Source of the DNA: an uncultured virus (IMG/VR IMGVR_UViG_3300044638_009799)
Lineage: Duplodnaviria > Heunggongvirae > Uroviricota > Caudoviricetes
Reading direction: 5' to 3' (one strand)
Length of the DNA stretch: 20,000 nt
Virus record (IMG/VR): IMGVR_UViG_3300044638_009799
Shown: positions 4,729-20,000 of the stretch, piece by piece
How the letters are laid out: every line of letters starts with the position of its first letter
Position numbering within the stretch: the stretch's first letter is position 1
Notes under the pieces: generated by a model
Seen by the model: only the letters and a program-made list of their open reading frames with translations
The model's database searches: none
Told to the model about the DNA's origin: nothing
Translations under genes and position numbers: made by a program

Positions 4729-5475
4729 TTATGTCTTCACCAAGCCAATCGTTCTTCCACGCAAGTCTCTCCATCCTACCATGTTTGGTCCTTCAATATC
4801 AAGATTTTTCAATAATAAAAGCCCATTTTTTTCTATTTTGTCCATATAAAAAGAAACATCAACGGGCTTGCTCATTGTGTCTAGATATAAAATTTTATAT
4901 TTTTTGTCTTTTTCTAATTGGTAATTTATATTCATATGTTTTCCAAATATATGAGAATTTTTAACAACAAAATCATCCATGACTAATGCTTCTGCATTAC
5001 TCTCTGTGAAAAATAAAGACCATATATAACTAAATGGCATAAAAGAATAGTAATCGCTTAATTTGTAAAATAACTTTGGTTTATTTTGTGAATAAAATTG
5101 CCAAGATTCATTAAACATTTTAAACAAATCGATCCTATTGTAATCTCTAAGAACAAAATTTTTATGTGTATCTGAATCAAATTCCAATTTACATTCAGAA
5201 AACATACCTTTTAAAAGGATATGCTCGCAGTGTTTTTTAATATGAGTTTCAATTAATTGTAATTCTTGCAATACATTATCTGAAAAAAATATATTAACAA
5301 AGGTTTTATGGCTAAGAATGCTTCTAACAAAAAACGAATTAGCTATCGAATGATCGCAAAACAAATAATTTTTATAATTTTTATTTTTTAGGCTTTCATC
5401 AAATTTTTGATACCACTTAGTAAAAGGCAATCCCGGAGCATTTTGAAAAATAAATCTAAAATCTGGATAATTCAT
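4729..5475 (-). CDS. Hypothetical protein, translationally coupled to spoVR
   Basis: 248-aa ORF with ATGA overlap with the spoVR stop. C-terminal YKILYLD...KNGLLLL weakly recalls a Rossmann methyltransferase tail; not supported further. Confidence 0.65.
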   Translation of the reverse strand: MNYPDFRFIFQNAPGLPFTKWYQKFDESLKNKNYKNYLFCDHSIANSFFVRSILSHKTFVNIFFSDNVLQELQLIETHIKKHCEHILLKGMFSECKLEFDSDTHKNFVLRDYNRIDLFKMFNESWQFYSQNKPKLFYKLSDYYSFMPFSYIWSLFFTESNAEALVMDDFVVKNSHIFGKHMNINYQLEKDKKYKILYLDTMSKPVDVSFYMDKIEKNGLLLLKNLDIEGPNMVGWRDLRGRTIGLVKT

Positions 5476-7067
5476 AGTTTATTCAATTGCTCCCTAGTAA
5501 TTGATTTTGGATCAGCTGAATCATAATCACCATTCATATCCTGACAATAATAAAAAACTTCGTCGCCATTATGGTTTTTAGTTTCTAAAACAACTGGCTG
5601 TCTCATTAAGGAACAAATAGACTTCATTACTTCGTATGCATAAGGTTTATAAAGTTCGATACCTTCCCACTTATGTTCCATAAAAAACATATTACCTTTA
5701 AATCTTGGCTCAATCAATTTAATTGATGGTAATCCTCGATTAATATATTTCCTAAGCAACTCTTTCTTGATCTTCTTGTAATCTCTACTTTCAATCTTAA
5801 CTTCACCATTTGGATATCTTTTGTATTCAAAAAATTCGTTCTTTTCGCAAAAATCTTTAGTAAAAAATTCATTAATAAATTGATAATCATCATAGTTTTT
5901 GCAAACTTCAAAAACTTTTTGCTTACCAAGACCAAGCTTTAGATCCCAATTTTCTTTCTCAAGAGGATCAGCACAGTTTTCATAATCTGTACCAAATCTA
6001 CCCTTGTCCCATCTTTCCTCAATATCCATCAAAAGAGTGAATCCAAGTTTATATGGATTCATACTATACTTACCACCAAGAACACCAGCCTTATGAATTG
6101 AATATTCCACAATCCCAGCATCTTCTGTTTCTTGACCAAGGCTACAATAACCTTGTTTTGCAATAATGTGATAATCGCAATAACTCGCAAGTCCTTCATT
6201 CAATGCTTTGGTTTTACCTTGTGGGCTAAAATAAATTGCTTCATTATAAAGAATTTCTGCAATATCTCGTTGCCAAGGTTTGAATGGCGCATTTTCTTTA
6301 ATATAACCAAATATATCAGTCTCTGGTGTAATAAGAAGATTAAGATCTTGCATAATCTCACGTTCTTCAATTTTCTTGTTTTGAGTTTTTATAAAAGATT
6401 TAGTGTTAATCCAATCTTCCATGTAATCATTTTTTGTTTTAATCCTTCGTGGAAATACATAATCTTTATTATCTGTGATGACAACGTCTTTTGCTTTTCT
6501 TTCTTTCCATATATTCATTGGATCGACAAGCGTTTCTATCCTAAATAAATGATCCATAAATTCAGTAACAGTCTCTCTTCCATATCGAGACATATACTTT
6601 CTTACATTTGATCCATTGTTGGCAAGCTCATTGTGAGCATTCGTATTAGTTCTAGAAAAATGAATGTTGTTTTTGAAAAAATGACAATGCCCAAGAGCAT
6701 GAGCAATAACTGTAATATTATCAAGTAAAGTGTTTGAATTTAGGCAATACAAGTAACATGGTGAAGAATTAATCACCATTTCATATATTCTATGATTGCC
6801 ATATAGATATCCTCTTTGCATTTCCTCGTATTCTGCACCAAATTTCCAATGAGGAAACCTTACTGCAAAGCCGCCGTAGCTTGCAACTTCAGACATTTCA
6901 TCATGAGAAAGCATTTGAACAATAGTAGGGTAAAAATCCAAACCAAAATCTTTACAAGCTTGAAAAATAGTGGGAATATGTTTTTGTAATTCTTCTGGAA
7001 TGGGCACACCGGGAGTGGTTGCTGATCCAAACAAAACTGGTGAGCCGAATAAGAATTTATCTGACAT
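5472..7067 (-). CDS. spoVR: SpoVR/YcgB family protein
   Basis: FGLDFYP, RFPHWKFG, IYEMVINSSPC, AHALGHCHFFKNN, PWQRDI, YFSPQGKTKALNEGLASY, MNPYKLG. Confidence 0.93.
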   Translation of the reverse strand: MSDKFLFGSPVLFGSATTPGVPIPEELQKHIPTIFQACKDFGLDFYPTIVQMLSHDEMSEVASYGGFAVRFPHWKFGAEYEEMQRGYLYGNHRIYEMVINSSPCYLYCLNSNTLLDNITVIAHALGHCHFFKNNIHFSRTNTNAHNELANNGSNVRKYMSRYGRETVTEFMDHLFRIETLVDPMNIWKERKAKDVVITDNKDYVFPRRIKTKNDYMEDWINTKSFIKTQNKKIEEREIMQDLNLLITPETDIFGYIKENAPFKPWQRDIAEILYNEAIYFSPQGKTKALNEGLASYCDYHIIAKQGYCSLGQETEDAGIVEYSIHKAGVLGGKYSMNPYKLGFTLLMDIEERWDKGRFGTDYENCADPLEKENWDLKLGLGKQKVFEVCKNYDDYQFINEFFTKDFCEKNEFFEYKRYPNGEVKIESRDYKKIKKELLRKYINRGLPSIKLIEPRFKGNMFFMEHKWEGIELYKPYAYEVMKSICSLMRQPVVLETKNHNGDEVFYYCQDMNGDYDSADPKSITREQLNKL

Positions 7068-7069
7068 GA

Positions 7070-8257
7070 TTAAAACACCCGATTGGCACTTTGGAAAGGA
7101 GACCCTAAAATATCTTTAATAGCTTTCAGAATAGCTTCATTTCTTCTTTCTTCGCTATTGATAACATCAAATGGAATTTCTGCAACAACCACATTGTCTT
7201 CTAAATCGCCTTCTACAATAGCTTTCTCAACAGATTCTGCAACGCTGTGGTTGTAAGCATAAGCTCCTATTTGAGTTACAGCAACGAGATTTACAATATT
7301 TTGACCAAACTCTTTCTTTAACAGTGAAACAAAAACTTCATTATCATTGTCATAGTTTTCACCATCAGTAAAATAAAAGAAATAGATGTTCCAATTGTTT
7401 GGAGGAAATCTGTTTTCAAATTGTTTTGCGACTAGATCTAAAGCTGTAGAGCATGTGGTGCCACCGCCATTTCTTATCCTGTAGAAATCTTTGGCATCGA
7501 CTTCATGAGCGGCAACATCGTGCCATACATAAAGTCTTTCTACTCGTTCATAAAAATTTCGAATATAAGTATCAATCCAATATGCCATGTCAGAAACAAC
7601 GGACACTTTCCTGTCGTCCATAGATCCACTAGCATCTCTGGCAAAGATAACCACAGCATTGCTGGACGGAAATTTAATTTCTTTGTATTGTCGATATCTT
7701 TTGTCAGAGTTAATTGGATTAATCATCTTGACTTTATCTTTAACACCGGGAATTTCATATAAATTGTTAATTTCTCCAGTTCCGCATAGACGCTTCATTG
7801 CTGTAAGCATTGTTCTGCGTGTATGACGAAGAGATTCTGGACCAACAAGAGAAATATTGTTGTATTTTATTTTTATGTCTTCAAGATTAGCTTGTTGTTT
7901 AGGTTTAAGGTCAGGGAGTTGCAATTCATCTTTCATAAAATGAAGGATGTCTTCCATGTCAATCTGAACGATAATGCCTTCACTTTCATCCTGCCCTGCA
8001 CCGTTACCTTGTCCTTGACCTTTGTCTTTCCCTAAGACATCACCTTCTTGACCATCTCCACGTCCAACACCATTGGGATTTTTCCCGTGAAGAAAATGAG
8101 GAATGTCAATTGCAGGAATCTTTATAGAAACTTTGCCATTTTTACCACGGTGACGAAAAATTTCACCACTTTTGATGAACTTCTTTAAGTTCTTTCTAAT
8201 CCTACCGCTGACCACATCCCTAAAGTCTTTGTGGTCAGAATCAATCCTTCTGGGCAA
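7070..8257 (-). CDS. yeaH: YeaH/YhbH (DUF444) vWA-domain protein
   Basis: Gly-rich GVGRGDGQEGD, LQLPDLKPK, SNAVVIFARDASGSM (MIDAS DxSxS), GGGTTCS, WNIYFFYFTDGEN. TTG start with AAGGAG SD. Confidence 0.92.
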   Translation of the reverse strand: MPRRIDSDHKDFRDVVSGRIRKNLKKFIKSGEIFRHRGKNGKVSIKIPAIDIPHFLHGKNPNGVGRGDGQEGDVLGKDKGQGQGNGAGQDESEGIIVQIDMEDILHFMKDELQLPDLKPKQQANLEDIKIKYNNISLVGPESLRHTRRTMLTAMKRLCGTGEINNLYEIPGVKDKVKMINPINSDKRYRQYKEIKFPSSNAVVIFARDASGSMDDRKVSVVSDMAYWIDTYIRNFYERVERLYVWHDVAAHEVDAKDFYRIRNGGGTTCSTALDLVAKQFENRFPPNNWNIYFFYFTDGENYDNDNEVFVSLLKKEFGQNIVNLVAVTQIGAYAYNHSVAESVEKAIVEGDLEDNVVVAEIPFDVINSEERRNEAILKAIKDILGSPFQSANRVF

Positions 8258-8273
8258 TTTTATTCTCCTTAAA

Positions 8274-10349
8274 TTAGAACAGATCTTCTGCTAGATCGCC
8301 TCTTGCAAAAATACTGCTTACATAATCAAGCACATCTGTTGCGCTCTGCTCATTATAACCATATTTTTCAACAAGTCTTTGCTTAACCGCATCAATCTTC
8401 TTTTGAACATCTGGGTCAACTGTTGTCGCTCCAGATGAAAATGCACTTAGCTTAATGTGATCTTTTGTGTCTTCAAACAATTTTGCTTCCAAAGCTTTCT
8501 TAAGGAGGGAATTACTATCCCACCTAAAAACCTTTTGTTTAATAGCAAGATCACCAATAAATGCCGCAATCATTCTTCGGAAGTCATCACAAGTAGATTC
8601 TGGAACATCAATCTTACTCTCAATAGATCGCATTAATTTTTCATCTGGACTTTCTTCTCGTCCAGTAATCTTATTGGTAATTTTTGCTTTATTAATGTAA
8701 GCCATCAAATTGTCGATATAATTTGCACAAAGCCTGACAATTGCTTCTTCATCTCCAACAAGAGCCTTTTGAACTTCATTCTTAAGAATGTCATCAAGCT
8801 TCTTAGTTGCAAGAGTAACACAGTTTTGATACTTGCGCACCAAATCTTTATTAGAAATAAGAGAATGATTATCAAGTCCACTCTTTAAGGCATTTAACAC
8901 CATGAATGGATTGATGTAATCATGTCTGCTTGACAGCGTAGAAGAAATCTTGTCCTGCACATACCTTGCAGACATACCAGTCATGCCTTCATTCGGATTC
9001 TTATCTCTGAGTTCACGAACTCTATCAATTGTCCATCCGGGCAACATCTTTCCATCGTAAAGATCTGCCTTTTCAGTCAAAGTAATCTTATTGTCCTTAT
9101 CATCTTCCAAACGTGTCAACACTGAAAACAATGCAGCAATCTGCAAAGTATGAGGAGCAATATGTTGCTTAATCTTATTCAAATTATAATCTTGTTCCAA
9201 CACCTTAAGCTCCTTGCTCCATTCCAAGAGATAAGGAACTTCAATTCTTACAGTTCTGTCCTTTAAAGCTTCCATGTATTGGTTATTCTTTAACTTTTCG
9301 TACTCAGGAATGTTAGTGTGTCCAATGATAGCTTCGTCAATACTAATCTGAGAAAACTTCTTAGGCTTGATTGACTTCTCTTGTGATGCTCCGAGAAGAT
9401 CATACAAGAAAGCTGTTTCAAGCTTTAACATTTCAATGAATTCAATAACACCACGATTAGCAACGCAGAATTCCCCATCAAAATTGAATGTTCTTGGATC
9501 AGAATCACTTCCAAATGTTGGCAATAAAGCGAAATTAATATCACCAGTAAGCTCTGTACTATCTTGGTTCTTTTCGTCTTTAGGTTGGAAAGAAGCAATG
9601 CCAACTCTATCTGCTTCAGAATATTGCTTTCGGACAACAACAATGTGGTTGTTTACAACTTTAACCCAATCTCCATTATACATCTTGAGTAATTTGTCAA
9701 AGAAAAACTTACATTTTGGATTGATTTCACCTTCTACAGCAAGACTATAGAGAGTTGTTCTTTGTGATGGGTCAGCATTGCCGCTATGAATCTTATTTAG
9801 TTCATCAAGTACTTGCTTCCTTACTGTAAGGGGAAGAAGCTTCAAAGGATCTTCATTCATTGGGCAATCACAAACATCGCTTGTATAAAATCCATTCTGT
9901 CCTGTTGGGAGATTAACCCATTTATATGAATACCAAGCACCATTTTCAGTCTTGGAATAATCTTCCATGTTACGTTTAATTAATCGACAAATAGTAGATT
10001 TAGCAGAACCTACAGGTCCGCATAGAAGAAGTATGCGTTTTTCTGGACCATAATGTCCGGCTGCGCCCTTGAAATGAGCAACCAAAGACTCAAGCTGTTC
10101 TTCAATACCAAAAACTTTAATTTCTTCATGGTTCTCAAAAAACTTATAAGTTACGATCTTCTTGCGATACTTATCAATTTCTTCTGTTCCAAATGAAGTA
10201 ATCATGTCGTAAATTCTTTGATGAGAATTACGAGCCAATTTTGGATTGTTATAACATCTGTTAATATATTCTTCAAAGCCAAGCTCTTCATGGAGCTTTT
10301 TGTAATCATCAAGATTATTGTTATTAGCGAACTGTGTTAAACTAACCAT
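8274..10349 (-). CDS. prkA: PrkA/YeaG AAA+ ATPase (serine protein kinase family)
   Basis: ILLLCGPVGSAKST (Walker A), CPMNEDPL, FQPKDEKNQDSTELTG, SDSDPR, ANRGVIEFIEMLK, EALKDR, HIAPHTL, EGMTGMSAR. Confidence 0.95.
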   Translation of the reverse strand: MVSLTQFANNNNLDDYKKLHEELGFEEYINRCYNNPKLARNSHQRIYDMITSFGTEEIDKYRKKIVTYKFFENHEEIKVFGIEEQLESLVAHFKGAAGHYGPEKRILLLCGPVGSAKSTICRLIKRNMEDYSKTENGAWYSYKWVNLPTGQNGFYTSDVCDCPMNEDPLKLLPLTVRKQVLDELNKIHSGNADPSQRTTLYSLAVEGEINPKCKFFFDKLLKMYNGDWVKVVNNHIVVVRKQYSEADRVGIASFQPKDEKNQDSTELTGDINFALLPTFGSDSDPRTFNFDGEFCVANRGVIEFIEMLKLETAFLYDLLGASQEKSIKPKKFSQISIDEAIIGHTNIPEYEKLKNNQYMEALKDRTVRIEVPYLLEWSKELKVLEQDYNLNKIKQHIAPHTLQIAALFSVLTRLEDDKDNKITLTEKADLYDGKMLPGWTIDRVRELRDKNPNEGMTGMSARYVQDKISSTLSSRHDYINPFMVLNALKSGLDNHSLISNKDLVRKYQNCVTLATKKLDDILKNEVQKALVGDEEAIVRLCANYIDNLMAYINKAKITNKITGREESPDEKLMRSIESKIDVPESTCDDFRRMIAAFIGDLAIKQKVFRWDSNSLLKKALEAKLFEDTKDHIKLSAFSSGATTVDPDVQKKIDAVKQRLVEKYGYNEQSATDVLDYVSSIFARGDLAEDLF

Positions 10350-12130: not shown

Positions 12131-12259
12131 ATGAAAACATTTATCACATTGGTAGTAGCTTTTGTTTTAGGTTTTTTAGTTGGCGTAACTTCAACAATCA
12201 TTGGACAATTTCATTACTGCCCATTTGTTAAAGCAAAACTCATCCATAAGCATGAATAA
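12131..12259 (+). CDS. Small single-pass membrane protein (42 aa)
   Basis: MKTFITLVVAFVLGFLVGVTSTIIGQFHYCPFVKAKLIHKHE*; strong GAGGAGGA SD; hydrophobic segment of about 20 aa. Confidence 0.6.
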   Translation: MKTFITLVVAFVLGFLVGVTSTIIGQFHYCPFVKAKLIHKHE

Positions 12260-13610
12260 TTTTATTAATAATATTAGTTGTTGATAGACCTTCAACTAAA
12301 GGAATGAATTCAATTCTATCAACAACATTGGCTCCAGCAATGTTTTTGCCTCGCCAATCCTCACCTTTGACCAAAACATTCGGCTTAATTGCCTCAATTA
12401 CACTTTGAGGAAACTCTTCTTCCAAAACAACAATAAAATCAACACATTCTATTGCTTTCAACATTTCAATCCTTTGACCCAAAGGAATTATTGGTCTTTT
12501 TTCACCCTTCAATTTAGCTATACTTTCATCTGAATTAATGCCAACGCATAGCTTGTCACCAAAAGATTTTGCCTGTTTTAAAGATGATATATGACCGAAA
12601 TGTGTAAGATCCATGCAACCATTAGTCCAAACTAAATTAAAATCCCTATTCCTCAACACGGCTGGATTAGTAATCAATTTGTCTTTAACAAAAAAATCTG
12701 ATGGATTCAAAGGTTTATTATAACGATTAGCAACATATTTTGTTCCAGCTTCAAATGCAATAGCTATTGCTTCTTGCAAATCAATTCCTGCGCTTAAAGC
12801 CATAGCCAAAAATGCTATATAAGCATCTCCAGCACCAGTCAGGTTTTCCGGTTTTATAGATTTTTTATCAGGAATTACATAATATATTTTTTCATTATGA
12901 TCAATTGCGCTTACACCCTCTCCTGCATTTGTAATCACAACATTATCACATCCCAGCAAAGCTTGAAGCCATTTTAACTGATCTTCAACTTTTTCTTTAT
13001 TAACAAATCTTTTTGCCTCAACAGAATTTGGCTTAAATAAATAACATCCTTCCCAAATATTAAGATTTTTCTTAGGATCAACAAGTGATTTACTTTGCTT
13101 TAAATAATTCTTATGCCAATTTGTAGAAAATAAACCTTTATCATAATCAGAAAATATGTTAATGTCTGAATCAGGAATTTTTATGTCACTTAGATATCTT
13201 GATATATCAAATAAACCAAAATTAGGCTGTTCAATGTCCCACCTAGTTAATGGATGAAAGTCCTTATAAAATCTTTTTTTTATTGGATTTTTAACATCTT
13301 TTGAAACAATAGAATACTTTGTATCAATGCCATTTAGTTCACATATGTCTTGCGTTTCTGGACTAATAAGCGAAATCAAGTTTGTCTTAATGTTAAAATT
13401 ACGGAATTGCATAACAACATTTGCGGCACCACCACACAATACTTTATGCGGTTTGTCTGTAACAGAACAATGAATGGGAATGGGAAACTCTGGACTAATA
13501 CGATCAACTTCTACTTGGTAATACTCATCAATTAAAACATCTCCAATAATATTTATTGTAATGTTTGATTTGTTTAATTTGTCAAAAAAACTTGAAAAAA
13601 AATTGCCCAT
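12240..13610 (-). CDS. hldE: Bifunctional heptose 7-phosphate kinase / heptose 1-phosphate adenylyltransferase (HldE/RfaE)
   Basis: PfkB domain: IIGDVLIDEY, DRISPEFPIP, GGAANV, SDYDKG, VDPK, KPN, TGAGD. C-terminal cytidylyltransferase-like domain: TNGCMDLTHFGH, GINSDESIAKLKG..RPI, KGEDW, GLSTTNII. Confidence 0.93.
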   Translation of the reverse strand: MGNFFSSFFDKLNKSNITINIIGDVLIDEYYQVEVDRISPEFPIPIHCSVTDKPHKVLCGGAANVVMQFRNFNIKTNLISLISPETQDICELNGIDTKYSIVSKDVKNPIKKRFYKDFHPLTRWDIEQPNFGLFDISRYLSDIKIPDSDINIFSDYDKGLFSTNWHKNYLKQSKSLVDPKKNLNIWEGCYLFKPNSVEAKRFVNKEKVEDQLKWLQALLGCDNVVITNAGEGVSAIDHNEKIYYVIPDKKSIKPENLTGAGDAYIAFLAMALSAGIDLQEAIAIAFEAGTKYVANRYNKPLNPSDFFVKDKLITNPAVLRNRDFNLVWTNGCMDLTHFGHISSLKQAKSFGDKLCVGINSDESIAKLKGEKRPIIPLGQRIEMLKAIECVDFIVVLEEEFPQSVIEAIKPNVLVKGEDWRGKNIAGANVVDRIEFIPLVEGLSTTNIINKIIHAYG

Positions 13611-13643: not shown

Positions 13644-14969
13644 ATGCTTAATTCATTAGACAAAAAAATATTTGACAAAAAATTTGTTGAATTTTTAGTT
13701 GAGAAAAATATCCATCCTTCACATTTGCTAAAACTAGCACATCAGATTAATTCTGAAACATTACTAAACGAAGAAGGAATGACAGGTTTTTTGGGTGGTA
13801 TTGGAGGAGGACTGACAGGTCTTTACCAAGGATTCAAAGCTGGTTGGGGTACAAAAGATATAAATGCAGCAGAAGACAGATTAAAAGATCAATTAGATTT
13901 TGCATACAGAACATTTTCGAATAGTATTGAAAAAGCTACAGGAAACCCAGCAACAGCACGATTGGTTTTAGACAGACTGAGAACTGGCAGTGATGTTTTT
14001 ACAGACGCTGCTATTGACAAACCAAGTCTTATATCAGGCAGATCACCAACATCACCATCTGGTGGCAGCGGCACCGATTGGCTAAATAATCTTTTAGGAG
14101 GAGGGGGAGGAGGTAGCAGTCCCAGAAGAAGAAGAACAAGAACAACTGCCCCAATAGATCCTCTTGACAGCGATACTCCAGTGGCAATAGCCGAACCACC
14201 ATCAGCATCACCAGTTGCGCCATCACCATCACCAACTACACCATCACCATCACCATCACCATCACCATCACCATCACCATCACCATCACCATCACCATCA
14301 ATTGGTGGATTGACTCCAACGCCAACATCAACACCAACTACCACACCGACTCCTACGCCAACTGCTCCCCCAAAAATGGGACCAGAGAAAGAAAAAACTT
14401 TAGAAAACCTTATCGAAAAAGATTTTTTAGAAAATTTCAACAATTTTGTTGAAAATATTTTTTATAAAATTGAAAATGATGGAGATTTTGTTAAAAGAAA
14501 ATTCCCATTTAAGACTTTAAGTGTCATAAAAAGACTTTATCAATATAAGTCACTTCCACTCAAAATGTCATATTTTGATCTTCACAGAAAAAACATGAGA
14601 ATCATAGGTGCAAAAAACTGGAAAGAAATGATGAAGGAGATTATAAAAACATTTGAATCTAATAAATGTGATTTTGGCAATGAAGAGTTTGTTAAAGATA
14701 TTGGAACCATTTTTAATGACACTTACAATGCAGGTGGATATTATGAGAGGTTAATAACTGATTTAACTAGATATAATGATAATTGGAAAAATTTAATAAA
14801 GGCTTTGAAAGAAATAGGAAAATATATTGATGATTTTTGCGAAAAAAATCCAAACAAATGTTCTGACAAAGGCGGAAAATATGGTGAAAAACTTTTAAAT
14901 AATCTAGAAGAAAATAAAAACATCACTTTTGCAAATTGGTTATTAATTCAAGAAAATATACTATTTTAA
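13644..14969 (+). CDS. Hypothetical protein with Gly-rich segment and Pro-Ser/Thr linker (putative virion protein)
   Basis: 441-aa ORF; KKFVEFLVE near the N-terminus; LLNEEG followed by a Gly-rich amphipathic stretch; (PS)10 and (TP)n linker. Confidence 0.8.
   Translation: MLNSLDKKIFDKKFVEFLVEKNIHPSHLLKLAHQINSETLLNEEGMTGFLGGIGGGLTGLYQGFKAGWGTKDINAAEDRLKDQLDFAYRTFSNSIEKATGNPATARLVLDRLRTGSDVFTDAAIDKPSLISGRSPTSPSGGSGTDWLNNLLGGGGGGSSPRRRRTRTTAPIDPLDSDTPVAIAEPPSASPVAPSPSPTTPSPSPSPSPSPSPSPSPSPSIGGLTPTPTSTPTTTPTPTPTAPPKMGPEKEKTLENLIEKDFLENFNNFVENIFYKIENDGDFVKRKFPFKTLSVIKRLYQYKSLPLKMSYFDLHRKNMRIIGAKNWKEMMKEIIKTFESNKCDFGNEEFVKDIGTIFNDTYNAGGYYERLITDLTRYNDNWKNLIKALKEIGKYIDDFCEKNPNKCSDKGGKYGEKLLNNLEENKNITFANWLLIQENILF
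14241..14300 (+). repeat. Perfect hexamer tandem repeat (CCATCA)10 encoding (Pro-Ser)10
   Basis: Directly visible in the sequence. Confidence 0.95.
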
Positions 14970-14996: not shown

Positions 14997-15746
14997 ATGA
15001 AATTTTTGTTGCATATTTTTATTATTGCCATGTTTTCACTGTCATGTTTTGGTGCTGATTCATTAGTAGCAGTTGAGCCACCACCAATTCCCCAATCACC
15101 TGTATACAGTATTACCAATAAAGTCGAAGGTTTAGAACTTCCTGAACCAATCACAGTCGATAGCAGTGAAGGATTTCTTGTTGTCCAAGCTAAATCTAAG
15201 GGACAAGTTAAATGGTTTGTTGTCGGCAACAACAAAGTTAAATATGTTGCTAATGACGCTGCAAACAGTCTTATAGTTTCTGTCCCTCAATCTGGAAGTG
15301 TTAATGTTTTTGCAATTGCTCTTGTAGATGGAAAATTAACAGATTTTGCAAGAACAGACATTACTGTAAAAGGCGTAAAGCCAGATCCTGTCAAACCAGA
15401 TCCAACCGATCCTATTGATCCAGATGTAGTAATAGAAAAAGTTCCAGAAGGTTTGCATGTTACGTTTTTGACAGATTACAATGAGTCAACACCAGATATT
15501 GCAGCTGTTTTAAACAGCAAAGAAATTAGAGACATTGTCCTAAAAACAAAAAGTTTTTACAAAGTTTATGATGTTAATAGCTTAGTAGTTAAACAAAAGA
15601 AGATGGACACACTGCTTAAAAAATTAAGCAGTAACAACCTTTTTGTTGTTCAAAAGACTGATGGAACTGTTCTTTACTACAGTTCTATTCCAAAAACAGA
15701 AGTAGAAGTCGTTAAAATCCTAAATAAAATTACAAAAGGAGAATAA
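14997..15746 (+). CDS. Secreted protein with Pro/Asp-rich linker
   Basis: N-terminal signal peptide MKFLLHIFIIAMFSLSCFGA; beta-rich domain; KPDPVKPDPTDPIDPD linker; GGAG SD. Confidence 0.8.
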   Translation: MKFLLHIFIIAMFSLSCFGADSLVAVEPPPIPQSPVYSITNKVEGLELPEPITVDSSEGFLVVQAKSKGQVKWFVVGNNKVKYVANDAANSLIVSVPQSGSVNVFAIALVDGKLTDFARTDITVKGVKPDPVKPDPTDPIDPDVVIEKVPEGLHVTFLTDYNESTPDIAAVLNSKEIRDIVLKTKSFYKVYDVNSLVVKQKKMDTLLKKLSSNNLFVVQKTDGTVLYYSSIPKTEVEVVKILNKITKGE

Positions 15747-15747
15747 C

Positions 15748-16554
15748 ATGAGTTTTCCATCAATATATTTCGACGGCTATTACCGTATCCTTTCCCATAC
15801 CCCAAGCCCAGAAAACGATACTCCAAAATTTGGAGATTCATTCAGGAGCTTTGATGCTGCTGTTCTAAAAGAAATTGATATGTCTTGGCAAGGGCATAAA
15901 ATCTTAAACCAAAAATCAACTAACAGTTGTGTTGGTCATGCATCTACTGCTGGAATGGAGATTTTGCAAAAGCAACGTCAAAATGTTCAAAAAAGCTTTA
16001 ATCCATTCTTTCACTATGCGTTAATTAATGGTGGACAAGATGGTGGGGCTTATATTTCAGATAGCCTTAACATGCTTAGAAAGTATGGAATCTGTGAAAC
16101 AAGTGCGTTTCCACATGACCGTGTTTATTACAAGAGCAGTTTAACCAAAGCTGCTTATGATAATGCTGCTAGATTTAAGCTAGGATATGCTTATCAATGT
16201 AACACATTCGAAGAAGTTTGCCAAGCAATCAGCCTTGGTTTTGTTGTAAACATCGGCATCCTTGTTGGATCTAACTTTGCCAAAGTCGATTCAGAAGGCA
16301 TTGCTCCACTTCCAAATGGTGGTGGTGGCGGACACTCAATGCTTGCCTGCGGAATAAAGCAACACAGCAAATATGGCTGGTTGGTAAAGCTCCAAAATAG
16401 TTGGGGTTCAAACTTTGGATTAGGTGGCTATTGCTATGTTAGAAAAGAACATTTTACAAGCCGAAGCAAGCTTGATTGTTTTGCGTTCCAAGGTGTTGTA
16501 GAAGATCATCTAGATCAAGATAAGACAGACGATGTACCTGTTGTTAAAGTATAA
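15748..16554 (+). CDS. Papain-like cysteine peptidase (C1A family)
   Basis: NQKSTNSCVGHA (oxyanion Gln and catalytic Cys), GGHSMLACG (His), LQNSWG (Asn), GGQDGGA, FGLGGYCY. Confidence 0.92.
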   Translation: MSFPSIYFDGYYRILSHTPSPENDTPKFGDSFRSFDAAVLKEIDMSWQGHKILNQKSTNSCVGHASTAGMEILQKQRQNVQKSFNPFFHYALINGGQDGGAYISDSLNMLRKYGICETSAFPHDRVYYKSSLTKAAYDNAARFKLGYAYQCNTFEEVCQAISLGFVVNIGILVGSNFAKVDSEGIAPLPNGGGGGHSMLACGIKQHSKYGWLVKLQNSWGSNFGLGGYCYVRKEHFTSRSKLDCFAFQGVVEDHLDQDKTDDVPVVKV

Positions 16555-16564
16555 GGAGCTTGAA

Positions 16565-17041
16565 ATGAGCGAACCAGAAACAAGATATTCGTTGGCTGAT
16601 GTTGAGGTAATGAAAGAAAATGCCCTTAATATGGGGGCATCCACTGAATTTATTGCCGATTGTTTAAACAAGTATGGTCCTGAAGTCCTTAGCACTGTCA
16701 CAGAAGGATTAAGGAATGGATTTTCGTTTGCATTCATTCTTGAAAGTTTCAGATTGTTTGGTCCATTTGTTTTAGACTTCTTTATTTCCTTGATGTCTAA
16801 GAATAAAATGCAAGCAAATCTAATGGAAATCGCAAATCAAGAAACGCTAGGAGCAGCTGCTTTTAGCAGAGAAGATATCAATAATTTTGTTAAAGATGAA
16901 AATATTGACCTAATGAGTTCTAATCTCATTAAAGTTTTTATTGAAAAAATTCTTCCATATATTGGTAAGAAATATGGTCCTATTATCATCGAAGCAATTA
17001 TTGATGCAATTACAAAAGCTGTCGATGAGGACAAATTGTGA
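16565..17041 (+). CDS. Hypothetical helical protein
   Basis: Likely start ATG 16565 (AAGGAG SD); repeated KYGP/LFGP/KYGP helix-turn motif. Confidence 0.75.
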   Translation: MSEPETRYSLADVEVMKENALNMGASTEFIADCLNKYGPEVLSTVTEGLRNGFSFAFILESFRLFGPFVLDFFISLMSKNKMQANLMEIANQETLGAAAFSREDINNFVKDENIDLMSSNLIKVFIEKILPYIGKKYGPIIIEAIIDAITKAVDEDKL

Positions 17042-17388
17042 GATATCTAACTCTTGCTTTACTGTTTGCATTTAGCAAAATTTGCTTTGGTGAAGAATTA
17101 CCAGTTATAAAATTTCCAAACAAAAAAGAAATCGAAAAAGCAAAAATTAAAGAATTAATTAAAGAACTTGATGTAAACAGTAAAGAAGAGCTATCAAAGG
17201 CAGACCAACAAAAAAAAGAACTAAAAGAAAATCTAAAAGAAGAAATAAAACCTCTTCCGTCAACCGCTTCCAATCCATCTTCCCTCAAATTGTATAACAT
17301 GCCAACAACCAACAAGCCTATTTATACAACAAAGCCAATTTATTATAAAAAATCATCAATTAGATCGAAAGCATACTGTCCTACTTGA
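17038..17388 (+). CDS. Secreted Lys/Glu-rich protein ending CPT-TGA; possible CxxU selenoprotein extending to 17397
   Basis: GTGA overlap with the upstream gene; signal peptide MRYLTLALLFAFSKICFG; 3' end TAC TGT CCT ACT TGA CCA AAG TAG. Confidence 0.75.
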   Translation: MRYLTLALLFAFSKICFGEELPVIKFPNKKEIEKAKIKELIKELDVNSKEELSKADQQKKELKENLKEEIKPLPSTASNPSSLKLYNMPTTNKPIYTTKPIYYKKSSIRSKAYCPT

Positions 17389-17420
17389 CCAAAGTAGGAC
17401 AGAAGCCTTCGGTCGAAGGT
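17376..17420. other. Two adjacent hairpins between convergent genes (SECIS-like element and/or terminator)
   Basis: ctgtcctactt-gacca-aagtaggacag (11-bp stem, 17376-17402) and gccttc-ggtc-gaaggt (17405-17420). Confidence 0.7.
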
Positions 17421-17422
17421 AA

Positions 17423-17851
17423 TTATTCTGAAATTACTGAATCAATAACAGAAGTTTTGGTCACAATCATTCTTCCTCGAATTCTTTCTGCATAAGACTT
17501 GCAGAAAGCTTTCATTTTAACAATCACATTATCATTTTTATCATTTTCTTTAGAAGAAAACTTTGGTTCTTTTAACCTAATACTTTTGTTATCACTAATT
17601 TCAAAAAAAACAATATTAATATTATCCAAAAATTGATTATCAATTATTTGTACACTTGGATTAGAGGAAACAATCCAATTAATACTTTCAAGATATAATG
17701 TTTTGTTGGCAAGTTGTTTTGCAAGCTCTACTTCATCAATCTTTGGACCAGATGTTGGCGGCGTTTTAGCTGTTACTAAAATCATAATACCTAAAAGCGT
17801 CAACGAATGAAAACTCAAAAATAAATATCTCCAAAATCCGTGACAATTCAT
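17423..17851 (-). CDS. Hypothetical membrane-anchored protein
   Basis: ATG 17851 with GGAGG SD; N-terminal hydrophobic helix YLFLSFHSLTLLGIMILVTA. Confidence 0.7.
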   Translation of the reverse strand: MNCHGFWRYLFLSFHSLTLLGIMILVTAKTPPTSGPKIDEVELAKQLANKTLYLESINWIVSSNPSVQIIDNQFLDNINIVFFEISDNKSIRLKEPKFSSKENDKNDNVIVKMKAFCKSYAERIRGRMIVTKTSVIDSVISE

Positions 17852-17879
17852 AAGCACCTCCACTTTAAATTAGTGGAAG

Positions 17880-18749
17880 TTATGCATAAAAGTCATTAAT
17901 CTTCTGTTGCCACTCAGTTTGTTCCCGTTTATTATCAGAGCAAATATCCGATAATTTAGATTGTTCAACATTGTCTTTTAAAGATTGAGACAGAGATTCT
18001 ACTTCCAATCGTGTTAACTTCATAGCTCCACGCATTGGATGATAATCATTCCAAGCTTCAATCGTATATGGGATCAAAGGCGTAATAAGCTTGAGAATAG
18101 CATCAGCATACACCCTAATTTCCTTCTGAGCGTGTGCATCTGCCCGAAGAGACAAAAGATGCAACAAATTATGTAAGTTTTGTTTCCAGTACCATTCTGT
18201 ATAAAGATTAAGCGGCAAAACCATTCTGGCTTGTTCTCTTGAAACACCAGCATCTAACATTTGCAAATAAACAGAATATGCATCTTTGCAGCTTAAATCA
18301 ATTTTATCAACAAATTCTTGAGATGTTTCCTTGTCCAAAATCTCTTCACCACCTTGCTTATTAGTTTTTGATTGTTTGCGTAAATCTTCAACATCAGGAA
18401 TATAAAATTCATCCTTCATGACAGAATATCTTCCTGAAATTTCATTGAGCGACACAGTTCTGTGCCTTATCATTTGTCTAGCAATGAAGATAGGCATTTT
18501 CATGTGTAGCTTAAAATCAATTCCCTCGAATGGAGAAGTGTGATTGTGTCTTAGAAGATAACGTATTAATCCTTTATCTTCATTTACAGATTTTGTTCCA
18601 TCTCCATAACTAACCCTTGCCATCTGAGCAATTGCATAATCACATGTTTGTCCATCAGGAACAATTCTTGGCATGACATCAATTAATTTTACAAAACCTT
18701 TATCAAGGCATTGAACTTCTTTAATAGGAACTAAATCAAGTGCGTCCAT
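17880..18749 (-). CDS. thyX: FAD-dependent thymidylate synthase ThyX
   Basis: ARVSY, HTSPFE, PIFIARQMIRHRTVSLNEISGRY (RHRx7S), REQARMVLP, NLHNLLHLLSLR, HAQKEIR. Confidence 0.97.
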   Translation of the reverse strand: MDALDLVPIKEVQCLDKGFVKLIDVMPRIVPDGQTCDYAIAQMARVSYGDGTKSVNEDKGLIRYLLRHNHTSPFEGIDFKLHMKMPIFIARQMIRHRTVSLNEISGRYSVMKDEFYIPDVEDLRKQSKTNKQGGEEILDKETSQEFVDKIDLSCKDAYSVYLQMLDAGVSREQARMVLPLNLYTEWYWKQNLHNLLHLLSLRADAHAQKEIRVYADAILKLITPLIPYTIEAWNDYHPMRGAMKLTRLEVESLSQSLKDNVEQSKLSDICSDNKREQTEWQQKINDFYA

Positions 18750-18803: not shown

Positions 18804-18834
18804 AAAAAAGCGGAGGTTTTTAGGAAACCCCCGC
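18804..18834 (-). terminator. Rho-independent terminator
   Basis: GCGGGGGTTT-CCTAA-AAACCTCCGC (10-bp stem with one G-U pair) followed by TTTTTT. Confidence 0.8.
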
Positions 18835-18899
18835 CAGAAAAACCTGACATATGTCTATTAAAATTTTTTTACTTATTTATATTAGGATTTTAACATTAA

Positions 18900-19542: not shown

Positions 19543-20000
19543 TCATCTCGTGTTTTGCCGAATAGCGTTTCCAAGCTCTTTCAAATCGTCATTAATGCCG
19601 TTAACAAGATCATTAACCTGCTGATTCCTCGCATAAACAGGATTACTTCTTAAGATATTAGCATAATTATTAAGAGTGGCTTGAATCTGTCGATGATTTC
19701 TAGTAATAGCTTGTCCATATCGAGCTTGTTGTTGTCCTTGTTGTTGTCCTTGTTGTTGTCCTTGTTGTTGTCCTTGTTGTTGTCCTTGTTGTTGTCCTTG
19801 TTGTTGTCCTTGTTGTTGTCCTTGTTGTTGTCCTTGTTGTTGTCCTTGTTGTCGTCCTTGTTGTCGTCCTTGTCGTCGTTGTCGTCCTTGTTGTTGTCCT
19901 TGTTGTTGTCCTTGTTGTTGTCCTTGTTGTTGTCCTTGTTGTTGTCCTTGTTGTTGTCCTTGTTGTTGTCCTTGTTGTTGTCCTTGTTGTTGTCCTTGTT
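19543..20000 (-). CDS. Gln-rich repeat protein, 5'-truncated by the window edge; paralogue of the downstream gene; not in the ORF track
   Basis: Open frame ...(QQQG)n-QQQARYGQAITRNHRQIQATLNNYANILRSNPVYARNQQVNDLVNGINDDLKELGNAIRQNTR*, TGA at 19545-19543. Confidence 0.8.
   Translation of the reverse strand, partial: QGQQQGQQQGQQQGQQQGQQQGQQQGQQQGQQQGQQQGRQRRQGRQQGRQQGQQQGQQQGQQQGQQQGQQQGQQQGQQQGQQQGQQQGQQQARYGQAITRNHRQIQATLNNYANILRSNPVYARNQQVNDLVNGINDDLKELGNAIRQNTR
19726..20000. repeat. 12-bp tandem repeat (TTGTTGTTGTCC)n, about 22 units, encoding QQQG on the minus strand
   Basis: Directly visible. A few CAA->CGA (Q->R) variants and one 18-bp unit near 19850-19890. Continues past the window end. 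Confidence 0.95.

Follow-up and report, generated by a model that had tools for sequence, protein, structure and literature searches.

The UGA that closes the gene for a small 116-aa protein in this phage is probably a real stop codon, lying within a conserved RNA structure at the 3' end of the gene. The window, that is, the whole 20,000-nucleotide stretch that we analysed, has two hairpins at this point. Ribosomes presumably stop at the UGA, and the hairpins would function in termination or stabilisation. We envisage the UGA as the true stop of a small phage protein with a Cys-Pro-Thr end and predicted export, and the two hairpins as a structure shared by the RNA 3' ends of two transcription units that converge here; this lake-water phage would have a genome of ~570 kb. 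The features that bear on this interpretation are as follows.

14997..17041, plus strand: upstream operon genes, encoding a 249-aa protein, a C1 peptidase and a 158/169-aa protein.
15748-16554, plus strand: the C1 peptidase gene (PF00112).
17038..17388, plus strand: gene for the 116-aa protein, with a GTG start and a product ending in CPT (from the ORF list; 26 family proteins).
17377..17385, plus strand: TGT CCT ACT, the codons of the conserved C-terminal tripeptide Cys-Pro-Thr (18 of 26 proteins end in CPT).
17386..17388, plus strand: TGA, stop or candidate selenocysteine (Sec) codon (TGA in 17 of 17 loci).
17389..17397, plus strand: CCA AAG TAG, a further stop in frame after two sense codons (second stop in 17 of 17 loci).
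17376..17402, no strand assigned: hairpin 1, an 11-bp stem with a 5-nt loop, about -16.5 kcal/mol by folding, in the long-form clade only.
17405..17420, no strand assigned: hairpin 2, a 6-bp stem with the loop GGTC at 17411-17414, kept across the whole family.
17423..17863, minus strand: convergent gene, 146 aa, whose TAA stop is 2 nt from hairpin 2.

The 116-aa gene is the final gene of the plus-strand operon, and its GTG start overlaps the TGA of the preceding 158/169-aa gene. The peptidase assignment of the first-pass annotation is borne out by the PF00112 match (27.8 bits vs a cut-off of 20.7). The 116-aa protein has no family match in Pfam, PHROG or NCBIfam. Its hydrophobic N-terminus leads into a middle rich in Lys and Glu, then into a segment rich in Pro, Ser and Thr, and its basic C-terminus carries Cys-Pro-Thr. 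It had been described as secreted; the hydrophobic N-terminus is indeed conserved in alignments, and from this feature export is predicted. The 249-aa upstream protein also has a hydrophobic N-terminus. Operon synteny is kept in locus L130, and in LR756511.1 without the 116-aa gene. The convergent arrangement is kept in both L129 and L130, and the gap between the two convergent genes is 27-34 nt (34 nt in the window). The dN/dS of the 116-aa gene is ~0.45-0.5 and that of the convergent gene 0.05-0.30. The 116-aa gene itself has a low dS, and measured against this the unchanging hairpin region stands out less than it does next to the neighbouring genes. A eukaryotic giant virus is an unlikely source of the DNA, given the Shine-Dalgarno motifs, start codons that overlap stop codons, and a DnaE-type polymerase.

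Among named records LR756511.1 is the nearest; only DnaE and the peptidase led to it, and it encodes a 611-aa protein in place of the 116-aa gene, so it is uninformative on the TGA. Searches of named phages with 3.9 kb of DNA (blastn) and with the 116-aa protein (tblastn) gave no match. Scanning IMG/VR with the arms of hairpin 1 returned seven loci that were already in the set and, in L018, a coding sequence that is unrelated, and scanning with the 3' end of the convergent gene returned 34 loci, eight already known and the remainder unrelated. Protein-guided IMG/VR scans (P0016; alignment A5) found no new locus, and a protein atlas gave scores near chance only. Among sequencing runs, which were searched as assembled contigs and not as reads, 19 from lake-water DNA each contain at least half of the words sampled from the stretch, and one RNA library contains a relative.

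At the end of the gene, the sequence is as the first-pass annotation gave it: the ORF at 17038-17388 ends TGT CCT ACT TGA CCA AAG TAG. Read directly, the codons are TAC (17374-76), TGT (17377-79), CCT (17380-82) and ACT (17383-85), followed from the stop onward by TGA (17386-88), CCA (17389-91), AAG (17392-94) and TAG (17395-97). Besides the 18 family proteins that end in CPT, three end in CPTWPK and five are truncated, frameshifted or tail-less, with P0017 and P0027 lacking the CPT tail. The Cys, Pro and Thr codons all vary synonymously (TGT CCA ACC in L129; TGC CCG ACA in L130) while the TGA stays invariant, and accordingly none of the 17 loci has TAA or TAG at that codon. The codons past the TGA are conserved in the sense that an in-frame second stop follows one or two codons on at every locus, as TAG in 16 and as TAA in L009. 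In L130 the TGA is followed by CCA TAG and in L129 by TTG TAG, a 3-nt length difference relative to the window that keeps the frame. Orthologue pairs between two lineages keep TGA in 14 of 19 cases.

Hairpin 1 consists of an 11-nt 5' arm (17376-17386), the loop GACCA (17387-17391) and a 3' arm (17392-17402), and its stem has five G-C pairs. The earlier description of the UGA at the apex of an 11-bp stem is correct: the stem closes on the T of the TGA, and the loop starts with its GA. Identity peaks locally over the hairpin region, at 93% vs 56-80% in the flanks. In the L004 group the outermost C-G pair is replaced by U-A, which is one compensatory change. Hairpin 1 is absent from L129 and L130, and since it occurs in one clade only it can be no part of any ancestral recoding signal. 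Hairpin 2 was also described correctly, as gccttc-GGTC-gaaggt with six pairs, the outermost a G.U pair, and a loop 22 nt after the UGA; its energy is -6.6 kcal/mol alone and -7.6 kcal/mol in a 30-nt context (ViennaRNA). The two hairpins fared differently in the comparison of homologues. Whereas hairpin 1 is clade-specific, hairpin 2 covaries, with all six pairs replaced in L129 and L130 and GGUC kept; the pairs were counted by a script from the loop outward, as the MAFFT alignment left the L130 loop out of register. Across four lineages hairpin 2 has the loop GGUC(U) and a stem of 6-7 bp, the loop lies 18, 19, 19 and 22 nt past the UGA, and the stem starts 12-16 nt past it.

Folding at this site bears out both hairpins. 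An 81-nt stretch folds at -31.5 kcal/mol on the plus strand (z -6.46) and at -29.8 on the minus strand (z -6.24), and in each case none of 200 shuffles was as good. For a 65-nt stretch the minimum-energy fold is exactly hairpins 1 and 2 (-25.2, z -4.73). When more sequence is included, a competitor of hairpin 2 becomes possible, in which the two flanks of hairpin 1 pair with each other; we favour hairpin 2 over this flank pairing because of its covariation. In L129 and L130 the sole remaining structure is an AU-rich hairpin of 6-7 bp (-3.6 and -4.4 kcal/mol), and the region folds no better than shuffles (z -0.26 and -0.98).

Hairpins are a general feature of gene ends in these phages. Across 260 kb of related contigs, where a strong hairpin falls outside a gene it is located at a gene end, and four other convergent junctions have stems of 11 to 17 bp, with the stop codon in or against the stem at two of them. 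The arrangement at the 116-aa gene resembles a bidirectional intrinsic terminator, in having a strong hairpin in a 34-nt convergent gap with loosely U-rich tails on both strands, and in recurring at other junctions of related contigs. By a simple scan, 26 sites look like terminators, vs 9.1 +/- 3.1 in shuffles, among them a canonical hairpin followed by a T run at 18809-18835. The terminator scan flags hairpin 1 on the minus strand and hairpin 2 on the plus strand, and on these same strands the two hairpins pass a loose U-tail rule (5 T in 8). In the sequence itself neither hairpin is followed by an uninterrupted run of at least four T, and the lack of a clean U run is one difference from bidirectional terminators. 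Others are that the stem of hairpin 1 is coding sequence with the stop in its loop, and that two hairpins stand in tandem here, the older of which is weak and has a conserved loop. Hairpin 1 provides the stable stem-loop with G+C that a terminator needs right behind a gene, but L129 and L130, whose only hairpin is weak, lack one. One contig of the RNA library spans 17302-17729, i.e. both hairpins; the breaks that DNA contigs show at the palindrome are an effect of assembly.

The first-pass annotation had named, as the alternative to its own proposal, that the hairpins are only terminators between convergent genes. Several observations do not fit such a function. The hairpins of L129 and L130 are too weak for a typical intrinsic terminator. 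Termination gives no reason for an invariant GGUC loop on a stem in which all six pairs have changed, and the loops of the other junction hairpins in related phages are unrelated to GGUC. It also leaves unexplained the kept second stop (through a TAG-to-TAA change and a 3-nt indel) and the fixed spacing of 18-22 nt from the UGA. We picture two elements of different age. Hairpin 2 would be the older one, occupying most of the intergenic gap and selected as a structure with a sequence-specific GGUC loop for a putative partner. Hairpin 1 would have arisen in the long-form clade alone, and may act like the strong hairpins of other convergent junctions in these phages, as a bidirectional terminator or to protect the 3' end. 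It happens to draw on the four final codons of the gene, which puts the stop in the loop; the 3' arm, complementary to the coding arm, holds the second stop TAG in the long-form clade.

The proposal of the first-pass annotation was that the UGA encodes Sec. In the form considered here, host SelB would bind hairpin 2 as a minimal fdhF-type SECIS just past the coding region, the ribosome would unfold hairpin 1, which would play no part in recoding, and the exported protein would end in Cys-Pro-Thr-Sec plus one or two residues, with a C-terminal CxxU redox centre; a redox coupling to the C1 peptidase, also raised in that annotation, is conjectural. We consider this unlikely, and the evidence is mixed. 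The invariant TGA beside a Cys-Pro-Thr that is conserved through synonymous changes in three codons, the in-frame second stop kept despite a 3-nt length difference between clades, and the SECIS-like loop kept at its distance from the UGA while every stem pair covaries all speak for it. In addition, hairpins with a GGTC loop and a stem of 5 bp or more, placed 16-24 nt past a TGA, are rare in related contigs (9 of 10,999 TGA triplets); three of the nine sites are this locus and the other six close no ORF of more than 30 codons. Cys at position -3 occurs in 2 of 95 TGA-ended ORFs, both of them the 116-aa gene.

Likewise, the geometry of hairpin 2 in four lineages (stems of 6-7 bp, spacing of 18-22 nt) fits the bacterial SECIS model as given in the available part of PMC13188914 (a loop of 3-9 nt with a G in its first two positions, on a stem of 4-16 bp, at a distance of 16-37 nt from the UGA). 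The fdhF element of E. coli, which we fetched and folded, reads UGA, 18 nt, loop GGUC, and fdnG has G and U at the same positions. Hairpin 2 is like it in being a small stem-loop with GGUC and in the Cys three residues before the UGA. The G and U of the fdhF SECIS, at about positions 23-24 from the U of the UGA, are matched exactly in L130, with an offset of 1 in L004 and L129 and of 4 in the window.

There are also differences from fdhF. The reading frame past the UGA has only 1-2 codons in the 116-aa gene, while fdhF continues for hundreds, and hairpin 2 lies beyond the second stop, outside the coding region and untranslated. This would be atypical for bacteria, where the available part of the same source describes SECIS elements as located inside coding regions (PMC13188914). 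Hairpin 2 lacks the bulged U that fdhF has and that E. coli SelB requires, it has no covariation-conserved lower stem, and its stems are weaker (-3.6 to -6.6 kcal/mol alone). Against a criterion of -7.5 kcal/mol, as computed with ViennaRNA and not with the original program, the window barely reaches it in context (-7.6) and the downstream regions of L129 and L130 barely miss it (-7.1 and -7.3). A search of 16900-17900 against Rfam at E values up to 10 returned no SECIS, only a chance IsrM match.

Homologues and machinery argue against Sec as well. Cys at the TGA position, expected of a Sec family, is found in none of the 26 proteins and at none of the 17 loci, a negative that is weak evidence as the family is small; the lack of known Cys homologues is a further difference from fdhF. 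L005 and L006, two of 15 close loci, have a 1-nt deletion upstream of the tail that removes the CPT-TGA frame, and both retain the two hairpins letter for letter; P0017 and P0027, having no tail, likewise count against a Sec function. On the phage side, where Sec genes had been suggested as a check, no SelA and no tRNA-Sec above cut-off were found in G001-G005, G067, G068 or LR756511.1, and the SelB wing 3 domain was not found in G001, G067, G068 or LR756511.1; these records are 7-23% complete, with no estimate for LR756511.1 (595 kb). The sole hint of a host is a related 546-kb phage contig that was binned with a Bacteriovoracaceae genome, and SelA is strong in only 2 of 61 Bacteriovoracaceae genomes searched. 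That same contig also carries the closest hit in bacterial genomes to the PrkA of the phage (65%), and since the contig is itself phage-like the hit says little on the host. A list of other CxxU/UxxC candidates in 260 kb of relatives consists mostly of non-coding frames, with nothing usable. The only viral selenoproteins named in the available part of the literature searched are the glutathione peroxidases of the poxviruses molluscum contagiosum and fowlpox (PMC8310308), with no phage case. They are virus-encoded proteins in which UGA means Sec and which rely on host machinery, as a Sec reading would here, but they belong to eukaryotic viruses, use a eukaryotic SECIS and are captured cellular genes with clear Cys/Sec homologues.

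The genetic code of the phage was also considered. Phages in which TGA is reassigned to Trp (code 4) exist, and a TGA=Trp reading of L009 yields CPTWPK, the ending of the three exceptional database proteins in the family. We rejected code 4, as coding density in related contigs does not gain when TGA is read as sense (0.911-0.923, vs 0.936-0.947 under code 11). Unlike in code 4 phages, TGA accounts for ~30% of stops (95 of the 314 crude ORFs from three related contigs) and closes 8 of 23 ORFs in the window; neither the window nor 260 kb of relatives yielded a tRNA. The code in use is the standard one, with TGA as an ordinary stop.

The same CPTWPK endings could come from a leaky stop, with low-rate read-through of the UGA by a near-cognate tRNA (Trp), the second stop as a fail-safe, and a hairpin that modulates termination or is unrelated to decoding. 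UGA followed by C is a weak stop in E. coli, and a C-terminal Pro affects termination; here the base after the UGA is C in 16 loci and U in L129. The second stop, in frame throughout and conserved even as TAG became TAA, is what a back-up would look like. Read-through nonetheless seems very improbable to us. It is hard to see what an extension of 2-3 residues would do, which leaves nothing to programme; the simplest account of the CPTWPK proteins is code 4 gene calling on short low-GC contigs; and the conserved GGUC loop is left unexplained.

That loop might instead be one half of a regulatory RNA switch or of a DNA-level site, since UGACC(A) at the stop is complementary to (U)GGUC(A) in the loop. 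The two segments would form a helix alternative to hairpin 2, or a protein-bound DNA inverted repeat, and in both cases the conservation of the two segments would be accounted for. There are 6 bp of complementarity in the window (UUGACC/GGUCGA) and in L130 (UGACCA/UGGUCA), two C-to-U changes in L129 keep the pairing via G.U, and the minimum-energy fold of L130 uses the UGACCA/UGGUCA helix and not hairpin 2. Still, we regard this as a long shot. The complementarity was noticed after the fact, and a match of four to six bases may be fortuitous; the helix excludes hairpin 2, and its 5' partner is locked in hairpin 1 in the long-form clade. For a DNA site in particular, rescue by G.U speaks against it, and there is no candidate binding protein. 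A kissing loop or pseudoknot between the loops of hairpins 1 and 2 was rejected on inferred steric grounds.

With the UGA as a stop inside a 3'-end structure, the likeliest reading, the locus would be a well-conserved gene-end RNA structure in a huge phage, and ordinary as such. Should the UGA encode Sec after all, the only case in which the locus would be of wider importance, the small exported protein of a giant freshwater phage would carry a Cys-Pro-Thr-Sec redox centre at its C-terminus. We found no phage selenoprotein reported in the literature searched, so it would be the first, and hairpin 2 would be a natural bacterial-type SECIS outside a coding region. An fdhF-like hairpin whose loop is kept while the whole stem is replaced, at a constant 18-22 nt past a conserved Cys-x-x-UGA, makes a clean and cheap test case.

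ORF 17038-17388 is the final gene of a + strand operon and encodes a 116-aa protein. Its 3' end reads TGT CCT ACT TGA CCA AAG TAG, and the stop of the convergent gene 17423-17863 lies 34 nt beyond it. The first-pass annotation suspected that the UGA (17386-17388) encodes selenocysteine (Sec) in a CxxU motif, and described an 11-bp stem with the TGA at its apex (hairpin 1, 17376-17402) and a 6-bp stem with a GGTC loop (hairpin 2, 17405-17420). The ORF end and both hairpins are where it placed them, and the folding energy of this region is well below that of shuffled sequences (+ strand, -31.5 kcal/mol, z -6.46; - strand, -29.8 kcal/mol, z -6.24). The minimum-energy fold of a 65-nt stretch contains both hairpins together. 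On balance, we lean towards reading the UGA as a genuine stop inside a conserved 3'-end structure.

The DNA is low-GC phage DNA (G+C about 33%), and Shine-Dalgarno motifs, together with start codons that overlap stop codons, point to a bacterial host. Its annotated features include:

774-2159, - strand, DnaE-type polymerase fragment
5472-10349, - strand, SpoVR / DUF444 / PrkA block
12240-13610, - strand, HldE-like kinase/nucleotidyltransferase
15748-16554, + strand, C1 peptidase
17880-18749, - strand, ThyX
18809-18835, canonical terminator (consensus terminator scan)

Completeness ratings of 7-18% for related IMG/VR records of 40-91 kb imply a genome size near 570 kb. Among named records, a 595-kb uncultured phage, LR756511.1, is nearest (peptidase, 43.4% identity; DnaE, 49.9%). 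Of the polymerase, the window encodes just an N-terminal piece of 461 aa, covering the PHP domain and the beginning of the Pol III alpha domain, and an ankyrin gene occupies the place expected for the remainder. The short form recurs in LR756511.1 (338079-339389) and at L127 (G006:C90:148898-150232, 54%), both in phage genomes of roughly 550-600 kb, suggesting a polymerase that is conserved in split or truncated form. The SpoVR / DUF444 (YeaH-like) / PrkA block is complete. Long low-complexity repeats occur in a protein of 441 aa (13644-14969; Pro-Ser and Pro-Thr runs) and at 19543-20000, where a Gln-Gln-Gln-Gly repeat continues past the window end.

Several findings fit an ordinary gene end. 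TGA closes 8 of 23 window ORFs and, across 260 kb of related contigs, about 30% of crude ORFs; coding density in these contigs is 94-95% with the standard code and slightly lower with TGA as sense. A tRNA search of the window and these 260 kb found none. At L125 2532-2625, ARAGORN predicts a tRNA with a four-base anticodon; Rfam recognizes it as an ordinary tRNA (59.8 bits) whose anticodon loop carries a 23-nt insertion, making it an intron-bearing tRNA of the huge-phage contig.

Fifteen long-form loci (protein identity 62-99%) all end TGA CCA AAG TAG, except L009, whose second stop is TAA. In the L004 group, each hairpin has a compensatory C-G to U-A change, at the outer pair in hairpin 1 and at one pair in hairpin 2. 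In L005 and L006, loss of one nucleotide from an A run puts the Cys-Pro-Thr (CPT) tail and TGA out of frame while both hairpins are intact, which argues against Sec. Three protein clusters end in CPTWPK; translation of L009 by table 4 yields the same tail, so these would most simply be code-4 gene calls on short low-GC contigs. At this stage, before distant homologues were added, the Sec reading looked weak. Between clades the 116-aa gene has a dS of only 0.37-0.49 (dN/dS about 0.45-0.5), and both neighbours reach 1.1-1.3 (dN/dS 0.05-0.3). These neighbours have mosaic histories, the upstream gene having a dS of 0.39 against the L004 group and 1.17 against L003. LR756511.1 carries, where the 116-aa gene would be (L024 4771-7347), 611-aa and 243-aa proteins; each has a CxxCH haem-binding-type motif, proline-rich linkers and a hydrophobic N-terminus.

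Six family proteins came from a full HMMER search against 1.84 billion representatives, and 26 from a word search based on a broader alignment. The C-terminus is CPT in 18 of 26 and CPTWPK in 3; the other five (P0008, P0012, P0017, P0027, P0028) are partial, frameshifted or without the tail. The distant members form a short-form clade (92-95 aa, 39-49% identity to the long form), represented at the DNA level by two lineages with unchanged gene order, which end as follows:

L129, TGT CCA ACC TGA TTG TAG
L130, TGC CCG ACA TGA CCA TAG

At L130 (1194-2477), one 427-aa open frame spans the C1 peptidase and the 158-aa protein that follows it, so their separate window counterparts may belong to a single functional unit.

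These homologues shifted the weights between readings of the UGA. Since all three CPT codons vary synonymously, the tripeptide is under protein-level selection. TGA is retained at 17/17 loci, and the in-frame second stop is preserved despite a 3-nt length difference between clades. All this favours Sec, which we nonetheless consider unlikely. A leaky stop with a back-up stop is more doubtful again. The Cys/UGA correspondence expected for Sec did not appear, as none of the 26 proteins has Cys directly after the Thr, and two lack the tail. TGA conservation itself counts for little, since between two lineages 14 of 19 TGA stops persist in any case. Of the two hairpins, hairpin 1 is missing from L129 and L130, and the covariation sought is seen in hairpin 2, whose stem is wholly different (six pairs altered on both sides, with one additional pair in L129), yet whose loop still starts GGUC.

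For comparison, E. coli K-12 fdhF was folded from its UGA. Its apical GGUC loop lies 18 nt past the UGA (G and U at positions 23 and 24, as in fdnG). Distances from UGA to hairpin 2 are:

L130, 18 nt to loop, 12 nt to stem
L129, 19 nt to loop, 12 nt to stem
L004, 19 nt to loop, 12 nt to stem
window, 22 nt to loop, 16 nt to stem

L130 thus matches fdhF exactly in loop and register, and the others are 1-4 nt off. The SECIS-like geometry also agrees with the published consensus model (PMC13188914), with borderline energy (window -7.6 in context; downstream regions of L129 and L130, -7.1 and -7.3). The stems alone are weak (-3.6 to -6.6 kcal/mol across lineages) and lack the bulged U of fdhF, and hairpin 2 lies past the second stop, unlike the bacterial SECIS elements inside coding regions described there. 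GGTC-loop hairpins of at least 5 bp, 16-24 nt past a TGA, occur at 9 of 10,999 TGA triplets in related contigs; three are this locus, and no ORF of more than 30 codons ends at any of the remaining six. A looser consensus (G in the first two loop positions) fits 7.6% of TGA triplets, and all four model criteria are satisfied by 9 of 829 in the window.

The machinery expected for Sec did not emerge: SelA and above-cut-off tRNA-Sec are absent from all related phage records searched, including the 595-kb LR756511.1, and the SelB wing 3 domain from the five records searched for it. Window PrkA is closest (65%) to a 546,147-base contig (G006 C90, L039) filed under a Bacteriovoracaceae metagenome-assembled genome; with this phage-like contig set aside, identities to proteins from many bacterial phyla are about 49-55%. 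Dense tRNA arrays and the phage-type DnaE fragment (54%) mark this contig as a phage in its own right, probably a huge one whose near-complete genome was binned together with bacterial sequence; the bin's bacterial dnaE (1199 aa) sits on a different contig. A strong SelA match occurs in 2 of the 61 genomes searched from this bacterial family, and SelA is absent from this bin. As an indication of the host, this is weak at best. In the literature searched on the subject we found no report of a phage selenoprotein; in passages of PMC8310308 two poxviruses are the sole viral cases named, and passages of PMC9402790 describe few or no viral sequences in selenoprotein families.

The stop-codon and loop regions are complementary (6 bp in the window and L130), G.U pairs preserve this in L129, and the L130 minimum-energy fold adopts the stop-region/loop helix. 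An RNA switch or DNA site would accommodate these observations, although the complementarity was spotted post hoc and we regard this explanation as improbable.

Also in favour of an ordinary gene end, a consensus scan finds 26 terminator-like sites in the window, against 9.1 +/- 3.1 in shuffles, and picks hairpin 1 on the - strand and hairpin 2 on the + strand. Strong non-genic hairpins of related contigs are located at gene ends, with 11- to 17-bp stems at four further convergent junctions; at two of these four a stop codon lies inside or against the stem. DNA assemblies from two lake runs have contigs that end at 17397 and 17425 and begin at 17405-17406, an assembly effect of the inverted repeat. 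A 14-base stretch one base off the hairpin 2 core lies within an HldE-like gene (G002 83185-83198, G003 27268-27281), read as Pro-Leu-Val-Glu-Gly, a motif also in the window HldE-like protein; the near-match is probably chance. The second stop of the long-form clade, TAG, is inside the hairpin 1 arm complementary to the coding arm. With the UGA as a true stop, hairpin 1 would act as a bidirectional terminator or protector restricted to its clade, and hairpin 2 may be an older element recognised by a putative sequence-specific partner.
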